From assembly GCF_006345805.1 (NCBI RefSeq), contig NC_043012.1, positions 18,352,001-18,416,000 of the forward strand: DNA of 64,000 bases. Reading direction: 5' to 3'. Below are positions 1-62,379 of this stretch, one piece after another; position 1 is the stretch's first letter; each line of letters opens with the position of its first letter. The notes below the pieces were generated by a model. The model worked only from the letters and a program-made list of their open reading frames with translations. It was not told the DNA's origin and did no database searches. The DNA is from Octopus sinensis. Its lineage: Eukaryota. The position numbers were made by a program, and so were the translations under genes.

Positions 1-116
1 AACCGGCCAGAAGCTACAGTAAAACATACTTGTCCAAGGTAACACGATATGAAACTGATCCCGGAATCCTGTCATTCGGATGCAGTTTTCTTACTACACA
101 GCTTGGTCTGTGCCTA

Positions 117-117
<1 letters not shown>
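1..117 (-). mobile_element. Degraded 5' head of tRNA/CORE-type SINE (family 1), cut by the window edge
   Basis: Reverse complement TATAGGCACAGACCAAGCTGTGTAGTAAG...TTACCTTGGACAAGTATGTTTTACTGTAGC aligns with the head of the intact copies at 47301 and 61204. Confidence 0.65.

Positions 118-169
<52 letters not shown>
117..169. repeat. (TATC)n microsatellite, left flank of the Tx1-like LINE
   Basis: Perfect TATC run directly visible. Confidence 0.98.
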
Positions 170-1979
170 GAGAAACTGGTCGACAAGGCGCAAACATGCG
201 CCGTGCCAGGCCGGACCATCCATGACAACCTCCATCTGATGCGCTACATCATAGACAGGGTAGTTAACGAACCTGGCATGGGTGGGGCCCTGATCAACTT
301 GGATCAATCGAAAGCCATTGATAGGGTAGACCATCGATACTTAGAGGCAGTCCTGAGAGCGGCTGGTTTCGGTCCCGTCTTCCGCGGCTGGATAGCTGCC
401 TTGTACAGAAGCATCCGTTCGGTAATTCGCGTAAATGGACATCTATTGAGACCTTTCGACATTGCACGTTCGGTCCGTCAGGGATGCCCCCTCTCGGCGC
501 TTCTATACGTATTGACTCTTGAGCCACTACTGCGGAAGCTGGCGACTCTAAGGGGCATCCCGTGAGAATTGGGATGCGGGACGAGCGTGTCTGCATACGC
601 GGACGACGTCACCGTCATAGTGTCTAGCCACGAGCACATCGAGCTGGTCGGCGAGACACTGAAAAACCACGAAGCGGTGACAGGAGCGAAAATCAACCGG
701 GAAAAGTCAGTGGGCTTGCGACTAGGCACCTGGAGAAGCAAGCCCATGCCGTCCACCAGCGCCTCCGTCGTGGGACGCTGGACCGACGGCCCGGTTGAGT
801 TCTCGGGGTCTGGTTTGGTCCGGACCTCCAAGTGGAGAAGAACTGGAACGAGATAACGAGTAGGGTGGTCACTCTCGCCCGGCAATGGCCGAGAGGAAAC
901 TGTCCCTAAAAGGTCGAGCGGAGGTGGCGAACACGTACATCGCGTCCGTCATCTACTACCGCCTGACCGTCGTACCTTGTCCCGACCCTACCATCACCAA
1001 ACTACAACGCATCCTCTTTCGCTTCTTGTGGAAAGGATGCGTCCCGATGGTCAGGCGATCCATTTGCTGTCAACACCCGTTAAAAGGAGGGCTGGGCATG
1101 CCGTGGTTGATGATGCGCAGACATGCGCTGAGACTGCGACATCTCTGGCTCTATGTAGACGACGGTGAACAGGTGTGGTCGCCGTTTGTGAGACACGCTT
1201 TCCCGCAGCTCATCTCCATGACTGAACTGCAATCGTGGATCAAAAAGAGGCCAAGGAAGGGCGAATGGCACCGCGAGTGACGCATTGCTCTCAAGTAACT
1301 CTGCCGTCCTGGGTCAACCTTGAGTGACTCCATCACAACCAAAGCATTCTATAGGGGATTAGTGGAGGGGAGGTACGACGACGAGCTCAGGGCGAACCTA
1401 GACGTCGACGAGGAATACATGACCCGCCTTTTCGGGACGACTTTCGGGCCAGGGCCCATGGACAACTTCCAGGGATCCCTGGCCTGGCGGTGCTACCGAG
1501 AAGCGCTACCCGTTCGGGATAAGCTCTACAGACACGGCTCGAGAAACACGGGGCCGACCTGCCCGAGATGCGGTCAGAGCGACGAAACCGTTCTGCACGC
1601 ACTCGTTCAGTGTCCAACAATTTCCGACCTGTGGGCTTATGTCGAACAACTGCTGTCACGTGTGGGACGAGTCGGTTTATCAGCTGAGTCTATCGTCAAT
1701 ATTGTCACGCCTCCTTCCTTCAAACGGGAAGGAAGAGCTATTTCCATCATCCTTGTGGCTATGGCGAAAGAATGTATCTGGTGGACGCGTCTGAAAGGAT
1801 TGGAGACAAACACTTTCCTCTCTGGTCAATCTATCATCAACTTCTTCAAGTACCACTTGAAAAGGAAAGTGAGAGTAGAGAGGCAAGTTTTGTCTAGCGA
1901 ATGTTTTAAAAAAAGATGGGTGAATGTAGCAAGAATGGCACGTATGAATGACGAAGCCACCTTGAGCATAGTCCTATGA
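170..1979 (+). pseudogene. Disrupted ORF2 (reverse transcriptase plus C-terminal zinc knuckle) of the Tx1-like LINE
   Basis: ORF pieces 80-565, 569-856, 885-1280 and 1320-1979 are collinear parts of one protein. They are broken by TGA at 563-565, a frameshift near 800-810 and stops near 1278-1298. The endonuclease domain is absent. Confidence 0.9.
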
Positions 1980-2347
1980 ACCCAGAAATCGAAAACAGAG
2001 TGTTGCTTATTTGCAAAAAAAAAAAAAAAAAAGAAATATAACATGTGACTTCATTGACCGAGGTTACCGTGATCTTTTCCGTAGGCTTTTCTTTCCACGG
2101 GTAAACCTCACCTGTCCTCCCCTTTACACTTCATATTGACATTTCTGTGATAACGATCCCTATTGATCAATTTTTTTCCTCTCCCCCTTTTTTTTAACCC
2201 CCCCTTTTTTGTCCTCTTTCTCTCCTTTTACGATCCCTTTTGATCGAAACTCCCCCCTTCCTTTTTTTTTTTAACCCTTCAAAAGAAAAGCTCTACCTTG
2301 TAATTTGTTCTATCTGTGTGCAGCCCTGTGTGGCTAATAAAGAAACA
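170..2347 (+). mobile_element. 5'-truncated Tx1/L1-group non-LTR retrotransposon
   Basis: GC-rich block. RT motifs QTCAVPGRTIHDN, LDQSKAIDRVDH, VRQGCPLSALLY, AYADDV (YADD at 596-607); then LSLKGRAEVAN and KGGLGMP; C-terminal CPRC-x8-H-x4-C knuckle. Pyrimidine-rich 3' UTR ends in AATAAAGAAAC. Confidence 0.92.
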
Positions 2348-2368
2348 TATCTATCTATCTCTCTCTCA

Positions 2369-2427
<59 letters not shown>

Positions 2428-2445
2428 CATCTTTCTGTCTGTCTG
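2348..2445. repeat. (TATC)n grading into (TGTC)n, right flank of the Tx1-like LINE
   Basis: Directly visible; same motif and strand as the left flank. Confidence 0.95.

Positions 2446-3767: not shown

Positions 3768-3800
<33 letters not shown>
3627..3800. repeat. (AAC)n/(AAT)n microsatellite
   Basis: Directly visible, with GAT interruptions. Confidence 0.97.
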
Positions 3801-3801
<1 letters not shown>

Positions 3802-4035
3802 CCCTGATGCAGTACCAGGCAGTGGCTCTCAAATGCCCTGATGCAGTACCAGGCAGTGGCTCTCAAATGCCCTGATGCAGTACCAGTCAGTGGCTCTCAA
3901 ATGCCCTGATGCAGTACCAGGCAGTGGATCTCAAATACCCTGATGCAGTACCAGGCAGTGGCTCTCAAATGCCCTGATGCAGTACTTGGCAGTGGCTCTC
4001 AAATGCCCTGATGCAGTACCAGGCAGTGGCTCTCA
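3798..4035. repeat. 7 x 34-bp tandem repeat AATGCCCTGATGCAGTACCAGGCAGTGGCTCTCA
   Basis: GCCCTG-equivalent positions at 3801, 3835, 3869, 3903, 3937, 3971 and 4005; five substitutions in total; no spacers. Confidence 0.97.
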
Positions 4036-34410: not shown

Positions 34411-36647
34411 CTAGTTTCAGCTTATGAGCTGTGGCCATGCTGGGGCACCGCCATTTGGTGTTGCTACTTGGTTTCACTTCATGGAGGCTTTCTAGCAACT
34501 GCTATTTGGTGCATGAGAGAGTTCGATGCAGCTGCCCTCATCTGCCCCTCCTGCCGTGAAGTTGGTTCATCTGGGACACCTGACAGGAAGAGATCCAGCT
34601 TCATTTTAAAGACATCTGTATCCACCCCATGCAGGTCTCTCAGGTTCTTCGGGAGGATATTGAAGAGCTGTGGGCCTCGGAAGCCCAGGCTATCACAGAA
34701 TCTTGTCCTACATCTTGATGGCAGGTTTGGAGTCCTAGGCACCACGCAGTGGCGCCCAGTTCTGGCATTTGCGTAACTCTCGATGCCAAAGTTCAGGACA
34801 CTTCCCTCCAGGATCTTCCAGATGTATATTATGGCATATCTTTCCCGCCTACGCTCCAGGGAATATAATTTTAATCTCTTGAGTCTTTCCCAGTAGCTTA
34901 CATTCTGCATAGAGGCTATCTTCTTTGTGTAGCTTCGTTGGGTCGCCTCAAGTTCTGTGATCAACTTGACACTAGATGGTGACCATAGCTGAGAGCAATA
35001 GTCAAAGTGGCTTAGGACAAGTGTCTCCAGAGGACCATCATGGTTTCTTGTTCTCTTGTTCTAAAGGTTCTAAGAATCCATCCAGCCAGCCGTCTACATT
35101 TCAGTGTCAGTTTAGCAACATGTACATGAAAGGTCGCGTCATCACTCATGTGAATACCCAGGTCACGCACTGATTGTGCTCTGGGATTGCAATCCCTCCG
35201 GGTCCAGTGTATTCATTGGGTATTGCATTCAGTTTTGCATGCTGATAGTATAAAGCTTGAAACTTTCCAGCATTGAACTGCATGCTATTCTTTTCAGCCC
35301 ACTTGTATTTCGTCCAGCTCACATTGCAGGTGTTTAGTGTCCTCAGGGTTCTGTATTGCCTGTGAAACTTTTGTATCATCTGCATAACTTGTGATCGTGG
35401 CTCTCTGCGTGGCTGAGGGCATGTCTGAGAGGGCCATTATGAACAGTAGTGGTCCCAGAACAGTGCCCTGCGGAACACCGCTCACTATTTGTGTGTTAAT
35501 GGAGGTGGCCCCATTGGCTACTACCACCTGACTTCTATCCTTCAGAAAGTCATGAAGCCATTCTCCCAGTTTTCCAACTATGTTGAGATCACGCAGTTTG
35601 TGACATATCATTCCTTGATCGACTTTATCACTTCCACATTTGAGTGGTTGAGCAGCCGTTTCAGCACCATGTCATAGTGTTGTAGGAGCTGAGTTAAACA
35701 GCTTCTCCCTGGTCGGAAACCATGTTGGGTGTCGGGCAGCAAGTCATTCTCTTCAAGGAAGGTGATCAGCTTCCTTCTGACTATTCGTTCCATGACCTTG
35801 CTGATGTGTGAGGTCAGAGAGATAGGTCTATAGTTCTTGGCTTCCGCTCTGCTACCTCCTTTATGAATGGGGCATATTTTACCTTCCTTCAGTTTTCCTG
35901 GAAGTTTGCCAGCTGCAAGGAAGCTCTGAAAGAGGAACTGCAGTGGTCTTGCTAGGACTCTCTTACATGCTTTTAGGAGGATTGCCGGGAATCCATCGGG
36001 GCCAGTAGCTGAGTCTGTTTTCATTTCATCTATAGCCTTGGTTACATCTTCTTCCTTTATATCGATGTAATCTATCGTCGCCGCCTCTGATTTTATATCT
36101 GCAGTGTTAAAAAAGTCAGTTGGATTGGTGATTTGGATATGCCCAAGGGGTGGAGTGAAAACACTCTTGAATTGCTCATTCAGTATTTCACTTACCCTCA
36201 TTGTTTTCCTGTAAGTGTGCCATCCTTTTCGAGGAGTGGCCCTATTCTACAGTGCACTGTAGCTGTTTCTTTGGCATACCTGTAGAAAGCTCTGGGGTTA
36301 GATTTTATGTTTTCTATAGCCCAGGCTTCTCTGTCTGCTCTTTCTTTTTCATGGGAGAGTTGCAGACATTTTTCGATTTCCAACAGTTTTATTTTTAGGC
36401 GGGACTTTTCACTGCTTTCAATCTGTTTGTTTAGGCGATTTGAAAATTTCGTACGCCGTCTCATTAAAATTTTCCTCTCTCTGGGGATTTTGTTCTTGTG
36501 TACAGTAGCCTTTCTCTCTGGGACACATTTGTAGCATATGGCTTGCATTACAGACATGAATTGTTGAAGTTTCACGTCGATGTCTGGCGAGGAGAGACAT
36601 TTAGACCAGTTTTGTTTGAGGATCTCTTTCTCAATTTGTTTCCAGTT
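34381..36647 (-). mobile_element. 5'-truncated CR1-group LINE with (AATC)n tail
   Basis: ATGPDGFPAILLK, NYRPISLTSHISKVMERIV, QHGFRPGRSCLTQLL, GVPQGTVLGPLLF, SYADDTK, YWERLKRLKLYSLERRRER. Very short 3' UTR; (TTGA)n at 34381-34410 on +; several frameshifts. Confidence 0.93.
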
Positions 36648-60103: not shown

Positions 60104-61203
60104 AACGTATTGTTATATATAGATGTAGGGTAAGAATTATGCACAGATAGATTTACTCACTGTTGCGGTAATGCAAGCATAGACAATCACACAAACTCTC
60201 ATGTCCGTGTGAGTTTGTGTATTTATGTATGGATTCCACTTCGAATTTCTACAATTGTCTTTGTGCATATTTTTTTTTGTGTGTGTTTGTGTGTGTTTGC
60301 GTGGGGGAGGGAGTATATCTGTGTATATTCTTGTATATGCTCACACTGCATTAGTTTTCTACTTAATCTGAACAAGAATGTAAAACTATTTTATATTGCT
60401 TTGCAATCTCGTTATTTGCATTGTGATACATATCCTAACATTTTTGTAATCTTGTGATATTATGCCGCAGTACACCATTCAACTCATCATTATGTTATTT
60501 TACATTTTCTCTCTCTCTCTCTCTTCTATGTATTCTTTTGATTGCCAATACTAACTGAATAAAGTAGACTGAGATGGAATATTTTCCATCCATTTTCTTA
60601 TTTCCTGAGTAGGTAATATCATTCTAATATTATTTTGTCTCCAATAAACAACATTGAAGTTATATCCGTCTTCTTATTATTAATACGAGACAAGGTCAAT
60701 ATATTCAGACTTAAGCTCGAATGGTATCTATATCGCGAACTATAAATGATTTTCTTTTTGGAGAAATATTTATGTCTGCGAAATATTCCTGAAATTTAAT
60801 GGCATAATTTCAAAATATCCATTTCTTTTTAAAGAAATGAAAAATGATTTCGAGTCTCACTATAAATTATGTAATTAAATTTTTTTCGTTTATTAACTGG
60901 AATTATTTAATGAAGTGTTATTACTGAGATTACTGAGATTACTGGCTAAAAAAGGACATCTTACACTCACGCAACAACGCACATATACACATGTGTATAT
61001 GTGCAAAGAAACACATCTACATAAATATATAACATACATACATACATACATACATACATACATACATAAATACTTAATACATATAGAAAACTACGAATGA
61101 CCCGTCCTTGTTTTTTCCTGTCCTTTTTTGTATCGTCTAACTGCCCGGATGTTTGGTTGCCGCCTGTTAAGTTCTTGTTCCATTTTTTCTTTATTATTTA
61201 TAC

Positions 61204-61618
61204 ATAGGCGCAGGAGTGGCTGTGTGGTAAGTAGCTTGCTTACCAACCACATGGTTCCGGGTTCAGTCCCACTGCGTGGCACCTTGGCCAAGTGTCTTCT
61301 GGCTATAGCCCCGGACCGACCAATGCCTTGTGAGTGGATTTGGTAGACGGAAACTGAAAGAAGCTTGTCGTATATATGTATATATATATATTATGTGGGT
61401 GTATATGTTTGTGTGTCTGTGTCTTCGTCCCACTAGCATTGCTTGACAACCGATGCTGGCGTGTTTACCTCCCCGTCACTTAGCGGTTCGGCAAAAGAGA
61501 CCGATAGAATAAGTACTAGGCTTACAAAGAATAAGTCCCGGGGTCGATTTGCTCGACTAAAGGCGGTGCTCCAGCATGGCCGCAGTCAAATGACTGAAAC
61601 AAGTAAAAGAGAAAGAGT
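61204..61618 (+). mobile_element. SINE family 1, full-length young copy
   Basis: Best-preserved A/B boxes (TGGCTGTGTGG, GGTTCAGTCCC), CORE-like segment and tail hairpin CAGTC-AAAT-GACTG. Confidence 0.95.
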
Positions 61619-61768
61619 AGCTAGCTAAAAGAGAATATAGCGGCGAAGGTACACACTTATGGTCTCTTATATGTAAGTACATATATATCTATCTAAATTC
61701 TGTACGACTCTCTTATTCTTCCGTTCAGCCCCTTCGGTCTTACTTCATTCTTTCCATTCTTCTTTTTC

Positions 61769-61805
<37 letters not shown>

Positions 61806-62379
61806 TTTCTTGGCCTTTCTTTCATTCTCACCTTACCTCCTCTTTCACCTCACTCTGTCTCTTTTCTTTTTTTTTCTATTTCGTCCCTCCCTAATTCTTC
61901 TATCCCTCTGGCCCTACCTCTCCCCTCTCCTTTCATGTGACCGATGTTCCGCCAAGCCTGACGTTTCTTCCCTGGTTCGACTACCAAATGTGCAACATCT
62001 GTATTCCTTCTCGTGACTTTCATCCCTAATGTTCCTGCCGTAGAGCTTCACTTCCACAAACTCCTGCGAAAATTAATTCGTCCTTAGTCGAAAGATACCT
62101 GTTGTTCATGTCCTGTTTATGTTTATGCAACATCTCTCCGTTTTCCCGTCCTTGTTTTCGTATACATTCGCTTGTTTTTTTGTCACGGAATTTAGTGCTC
62201 TTAGATTAGATTGGAGCAGCCCCGAGTGTAACCGGGCGACACTGCTGAAAAAATCAGGAAATCAACTGAAGATAGAAAAGTCCGAATGACCTATCCTTGT
62301 TTTTCCCTGTCCTTTGAATTGTCTAACTGTCCGGATGTTTTGTTGTCGCACGTTACGTTCTCGTTCCATTTTTTGTTTT

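Follow-up and report, generated by a model that had tools for sequence, protein, structure and literature searches.

A Tx1-like LINE family of Octopus sinensis with a strong preference for (TATC)n microsatellites

The window, the whole 64,000-nt stretch of Octopus sinensis DNA analysed here (NC_043012.1, positions 18,352,001 to 18,416,000), carries an L1-group, Tx1-like LINE at positions 170-2347. The copy is 5'-truncated and embedded in a (TATC)n array, and like all window features given with coordinates for this copy it is read on the forward strand. The upstream part of the array (117-169) consists of 13.2 perfect units and would include any target-site duplication, the length of which is unreadable there because the repeat is perfect. 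In the downstream part (2348-2444) a CT run interrupts the repeat after three units, so that a duplication at this copy could be at most about 13 nt long. A search of window positions 1-116 for family sequence gave no match.

The element starts at about residue 543 of the intact ORF2, within the reverse transcriptase (RT) domain, in agreement with the truncation inside RT described in a previous sequence-only reading. The GC-rich coding remnant of ORF2 (170-1979), which belongs to a family designated A, retains the RT core, the C-terminal region and the zinc-binding domain. The RT remnant (Pfam RVT_1, 170-721) contains the YADD motif at 596-607 and an in-frame stop at 563-565. Comparison with other family A copies revealed two frame-shifting one-base deletions, near 801 and 888. 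Two more in-frame stops are found at 1278-1280 and 1296-1298, and the zinc-binding domain (zf-RVT, PF13966) is recognised in broken frames at 1479-1634. The 3' UTR (1980-2347) encloses the sole A-run of the copy (2015-2032) and an AATAAA signal (2336-2341) and ends in ...AATAAAGAAACA at 2347. As the sequence-only reading had noted, a terminal poly(A) is absent and both junctions lie in (TATC)n of the same strand. A 14-nt GATC-loop-GATC hairpin motif occurs twice (2155-2168 and 2232-2245); it is common to the related families A, B, C and D but not to family E. The position of each junction of the window copy is ambiguous by 1-3 nt. At the 5' break the corresponding sequence in intact copies is ...GTCATC|GAG, and the ATC may represent microhomology. 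At the other end, nearly all copies of the family share the T at 2348.

The damage in the window copy, two one-base deletions and three stops in 1.8 kb, contradicts the earlier description of few lesions. Its ORF2 is 98.2-98.3% identical to three family A copies with an intact ORF2 (L130, L153 and L154), and it combines a divergence of 1.7% with five breaks. Four family A ORF2s are at least 99.9% identical to each other, which indicates that family A was mobile very recently. Judged from these identities, the family is very young and recently active, and the window copy somewhat older than the youngest burst. Retained CpGs had also been read as a sign of youth. The observed/expected ratio is 1.0 in the window copy and 0.85 in the rest of the window, and since the latter is also high, CpG retention is a poor marker of youth and was dropped as an age marker. 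Elsewhere the window holds many simple repeats (243 rows in the repeat listing), a 34-bp minisatellite in seven copies immediately after an (AAT)n array (3798-4035), and two regions (35001-36000 and 61001-62000) with a GC content of 0.47 and 0.43 compared to about 0.33.

The 19-nt 3' end of the family has 5,806 exact occurrences genome-wide, the reversed control none, and the 5'-end motif, which marks full-length 5' ends, has 292. Full-length copies measure 5.9-6.2 kb, and two of them (L121 and L124) have both reading frames intact, encoding an ORF1 of 704 and an ORF2 of 1,145 amino acids. Pfam domains Exo_endo_phos, RVT_1 and zf-RVT were identified in the ORF2 of L121, and a putative zinc knuckle in ORF1 as a weak match to zf-CCHC below the Pfam cut-off (E 0.004). 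The solved structure nearest to ORF2 is that of L1 ORF2p, and the closest named homologue is a protein of Argonauta hians, with 69% identity across the RT core. At full-length 5' ends (L161-L190, around positions 1480-1500) a short GGAC/AGAC run with a period of 4 bp and a variable number of units directly follows the TATC array.

Directly after 4,101 of the 5,806 exact 3' ends we found W-TATCTATC, that is, two in-phase TATC units; 1,705 lack two exact units, and poly(A) follows none of the 5,806. A repeat tail would account for the 3' side alone, and the 5' junctions were therefore scored. As an unbiased sample, we took the first 42 places listed for contig C1 regardless of flank, with at least three TATC units within 60 nt as the criterion; one 5' junction was N-masked and six 5' boundaries were placed by eye. 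TATC was present at 30 of the 41 readable 5' junctions, in copies of 79 to 6,199 nt and irrespective of the point of truncation, and at 32 of the 42 3' junctions. It also adjoins 28 of the first 30 of the 292 full-length 5' ends, and GATA on the element's own strand was found at none of 40 sampled junctions. The corresponding background, at least three TATC units within 60 nt upstream, is 0.17% of sampled positions on the plus strand and 0% on the minus strand, a rate that refers to the rest of this single window, 61 kb. The published rule for a microsatellite-specific Tx1 family is that over 20% of its flanks contain the same repeat (PMC4494074), a proportion exceeded in both sets of sampled junctions and in the genome-wide 3' ends.

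The 5' junctions without three units comprise four with short or degenerate TATC, one with (TA)n and six with unrelated flanks, mostly in more diverged copies. Together with the 1,705 3' ends they indicate a strong preference for TATC rather than exclusivity. TA repeats are an occasional target, as a 5'-inverted copy on C1 near 21.75 Mb (L083) is flanked by (TA)n at either end. In our judgement it is highly probable that TATC is preferred by the family, whether by an endonuclease or an RNA-pairing route, and the flank tabulation bears out the GATA/TATC targeting that had been proposed from the window copy.

Variants in the repeats make target-site duplications visible at some sites. A scan of 121 junction pairs gave 16 with a non-periodic match, 12 of which were not scored as duplications, mostly because the terminal base was the only marker; the four scored measure 22 nt (L036), 17 nt (L077), 10 nt (L121) and 7 nt (L058). 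A further duplication of 16 nt was read by eye in L135. These marked duplications of 7-22 bp copy variants of the host array and show that the element inserted into pre-existing arrays. The phase of the repeat is fixed at the 3' end and free at the 5' end (11/9/8/6 across 34 junctions), and mean 5' microhomology at these 34 junctions is 1.44 nt versus 0.62 nt in the null. Four copies at solo sites (L058, L088, L056 and L053) received at most one TATC unit and no array, so long 3' arrays derive from the target. This junction pattern is consistent with target-primed reverse transcription at arrays that were already present.

The same evidence bears on a reading in which a TATC tail seeds the arrays, and the 5' arrays are tails of earlier copies rather than independent host microsatellites. 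Head-to-tail stacks of the kind it predicts do exist (L038, L041, L050, L086 and L089), but another family 3' end lies within 400 nt upstream in only three of 40 unbiased copies, and upstream of the window copy there is none in positions 1-116. The reproduction of host variants in the marked duplications and the absence of a gained array at solo sites also speak against it. We regard this reading as largely refuted and very improbable.

Chance insertion followed by passive retention in repeat-rich DNA, or errors of assembly at repeats, would be in line with the abundance of repeats in the window and with two pairs of loci that resemble duplicate assemblies. L038 and L041 are near-identical stacks on a chromosome and on an unplaced contig, and L029 and L030 are likewise near-identical, on two unplaced contigs; both pairs are likely haplotype duplicates that slightly inflate the counts. 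Neither process would be expected to yield a single motif in a single strand and phase. Moreover, TA, CA and AAT arrays are much commoner in the window than TATC, yet they were the target of only one of the 42 sampled copies, and a sister family, described below, uses another repeat. The fixed phase and strand refute these explanations, to which we attach next to no probability.

A search with a distant homologue, from which 20 of 40 matches were retrieved, revealed three more families. Families C and D are 80-83% identical to family B in ORF2 and likewise TATC-flanked; the TATC target is thus common to the four related families A, B, C and D. Family E (70% ORF2 identity) has 537 exact 3' ends, and the first 30 of these are followed by ATT in 29 cases and by TATC in none. 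The 5' ends of family E are less clear, since 17 of 30 extended past the flank and, among the 13 that could be read, several boundaries are uncertain; ATT adjoins five of these 13 ends and three of five long copies. Because of this low 5' proportion, the ATT targeting of family E is less well established. In an RT tree of 29 selected sequences, with weak deep nodes and one distant LINE as the outgroup, families A-D were joined (98.5/99) and family E was their sister (82/96). The outgroup was a 605-aa frame from an unrelated LINE (L085:5610-7424, minus strand). Family E copies L156, L159, L200 and L203 lie head to tail with 5-11 ATT units between them, and family D (L147, L148 and L160) has an internal (TA)n in the 3' UTR where A and B have the A-run.

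The most probable reading of the locus, in our view, is that of a broken copy of a recently active L1-group, likely Tx1-clade, LINE that inserts into existing (TATC)n in one orientation and phase, likely through an APE nick on the GATA strand. The APE endonuclease would prefer the GATA strand and probably nick it between T and A (5'-AGAT/AG-3'). Once released, the 3' end could pair with UAU(C) just beyond the AAUAAA signal, so that reverse transcription would be primed there and the poly(A) tail left uncopied; the target-site duplication would arise from a second nick at a distance of 7-22 nt.

Alternatively, targeting could be achieved mainly by RNA-DNA pairing, where a loosely T/A-specific endonuclease nicks widely and only those nicks are primed that pair with UAUC read through from the donor array. 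The ATT family would then differ mainly in its RNA tail. Such pairing would account for the lack of poly(A) at all exact ends although AATAAA lies 6 nt from the end, for the fixed 3' phase, for insertions at TATA and TATT sites, and for the excess of ATT at the 3' over the 5' ends of family E. It would also agree with a finding that counts against the endonuclease reading: the β-hairpin loop of the endonuclease, which has a reported effect on L1 specificity, is essentially identical in family E and families A-D. However, the solo-site copies gained no more than one TATC unit, and the endonuclease differs between the two groups in an Arg-to-Tyr change and a three-residue loop deletion that are confined to the TATC families. 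The Tx1L endonuclease of Xenopus, moreover, is reported to nick its target specifically by itself in vitro (PMC1950540). We consider a mainly RNA-based mechanism unlikely, and it is compatible with the endonuclease reading if both act jointly.

Under the endonuclease reading, the ATT to TATC shift would likely have come about through the loops at the positions of L1 Arg155 and Asn118 and not through the β-hairpin. The residue aligned with Arg155 is Tyr in all 34 readable loci of families A-D, Arg in all five of family E, and Arg or Lys in all 204 homologues with the motif (from 267 proteins over 900 aa); in one further copy of the TATC families (L033) this residue is His. In families A-D the Arg155 loop has also lost three residues, and the Asn118 loop is altered relative to family E. 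In L1, contacts are described between Arg155 and the backbone at +2/+3 and between Asn118 and the major groove (PMC8565326). From the junctions we infer a nick at a T/A step in both groups (AGAT/AG and AAT/AA); if this holds, the TATC and ATT targets first diverge at +2/+3. The link between residue and target is a lead rather than proof, because it reflects a single evolutionary event. According to PMC1950540, point mutations left the nicking pattern of L1 unchanged, further factors act in vivo, and loop grafts between distant endonucleases failed to transfer specificity. We put forward only tentatively, as possible but doubtful, a natural target switch from (ATT)n to (TATC)n between octopod sister LINEs, with the β-hairpin unchanged, via Arg-to-Tyr at the Arg155 position, the three-residue deletion and the changed Asn118 loop, and with microsatellite targeting gained independently of Kibi and Koshi. 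If true, APE target choice would sit outside the canonical hairpin, and the two groups would provide a minimal pair with which to prove it.

The features of the family are those of the L1 group: an ORF2 with an N-terminal APE endonuclease, RT and a C-terminal zinc-binding domain, a separate ORF1, 5' truncation, target-site duplications and no LTRs. In phmmer searches, proteins bearing the automatically annotated name 'Transposon TX1' matched its RT with 182-207 bits, and human L1 ORF2p with 106 bits, about half of that. The octopod families cluster with unnamed proteins (100/99), apart from a fish group (98/99), in the RT tree, which contained neither L1-clade nor Tx1L sequences. Membership of the Tx1 clade, suggested from the window copy, is likely on these comparisons. 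Human L1 (PDB 8sxt and 1vyb) shares the ORF2 layout, variable duplications, 5' truncation, occasional 5' inversion and probably the T/A-step nick, but has a poly(A) end and a weak TTTT/AA preference, and the zinc knuckle of the octopod ORF1 is a further difference. Xenopus Tx1L, which gives the clade its name, is likewise a site-specific APE LINE (PMC1950540). It differs in using a unique site in Tx1D, where the octopod family leaves variable duplications of 7-22 bp, and its hairpin loop is two residues longer than that of L1, whereas the octopod loop has the L1 length.

Microsatellite-targeting Tx1 elements have been described before, and in teleosts Kibi inserts into (TC)n and Koshi into (TTC)n (PMC4494074, PMC3812793). 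The octopod family resembles these as a Tx1-type APE-RT LINE inserting specifically into a microsatellite, but its target is (TATC)n. Its RT shares 39-41% identity with Tx1-type proteins of fish, among them Tetraodon BAC82605.1, which we take to be Kibi/Koshi-type proteins, and its ORF2 has 1,145 amino acids as against 1,318 on the Kibi/Koshi side. Judged by its target and RT grouping, and with the fish references so assigned, the family is not of the Kibi/Koshi lineage. Crocodilian Tx1 families share a tetranucleotide target but with other motifs, (TTCC)n and (TTTC)n, and they are placed near Kibi and Koshi (PMC4494074). Non-LTR elements of other clades target ACAY (Waldo), AC (MinoAg1), TAA (Dong) and TG (Togen) repeats (PMC3812793, PMC4640811); none of these four is listed with a TATC/GATA target, and the repeat of Dong is that used by family E. 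The accessible text of PMC4640811, PMC3747384 and PMC4758252 names no TATC target. Cephalopod repeat papers count L1-Tx1 families, 80 of them in O. vulgaris (PMC13282606), and their accessible parts give no targets (PMC13282606, PMC8967140, PMC10294476). In line with the sequence-only reading, which knew of no such family, a search of the open literature, with subscription papers, Repbase and Dfam outside its scope, found no LINE targeting TATC/GATA. Tx1 families targeting TC, TTC, TTCC and TTTC are already known.

How APE-type retrotransposons choose microsatellites has been described as poorly understood (PMC3812793). Here the ATT and TATC targets are divided between sister families that share about 70% ORF2 identity and both have open frames; the determinants should therefore be mappable by small swaps, and the pair would permit a direct test of how LINEs switch targets. 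In addition, thousands of GATA arrays with element-derived flanks would affect cephalopod microsatellite markers and repeat annotation.

At one place (L008/L028, C3:159.24 Mb) two 310-nt 3' pieces lie head to head, both ending in TATC, resembling twin priming. Half or more of the family words were found in 20 sequencing-run rows from nine studies under six organism labels, with no RNA run among those listed, and the four sequencing runs examined, which yielded no usable flanks, contained 3,373, 3,044, 2 and 11 matching contigs.
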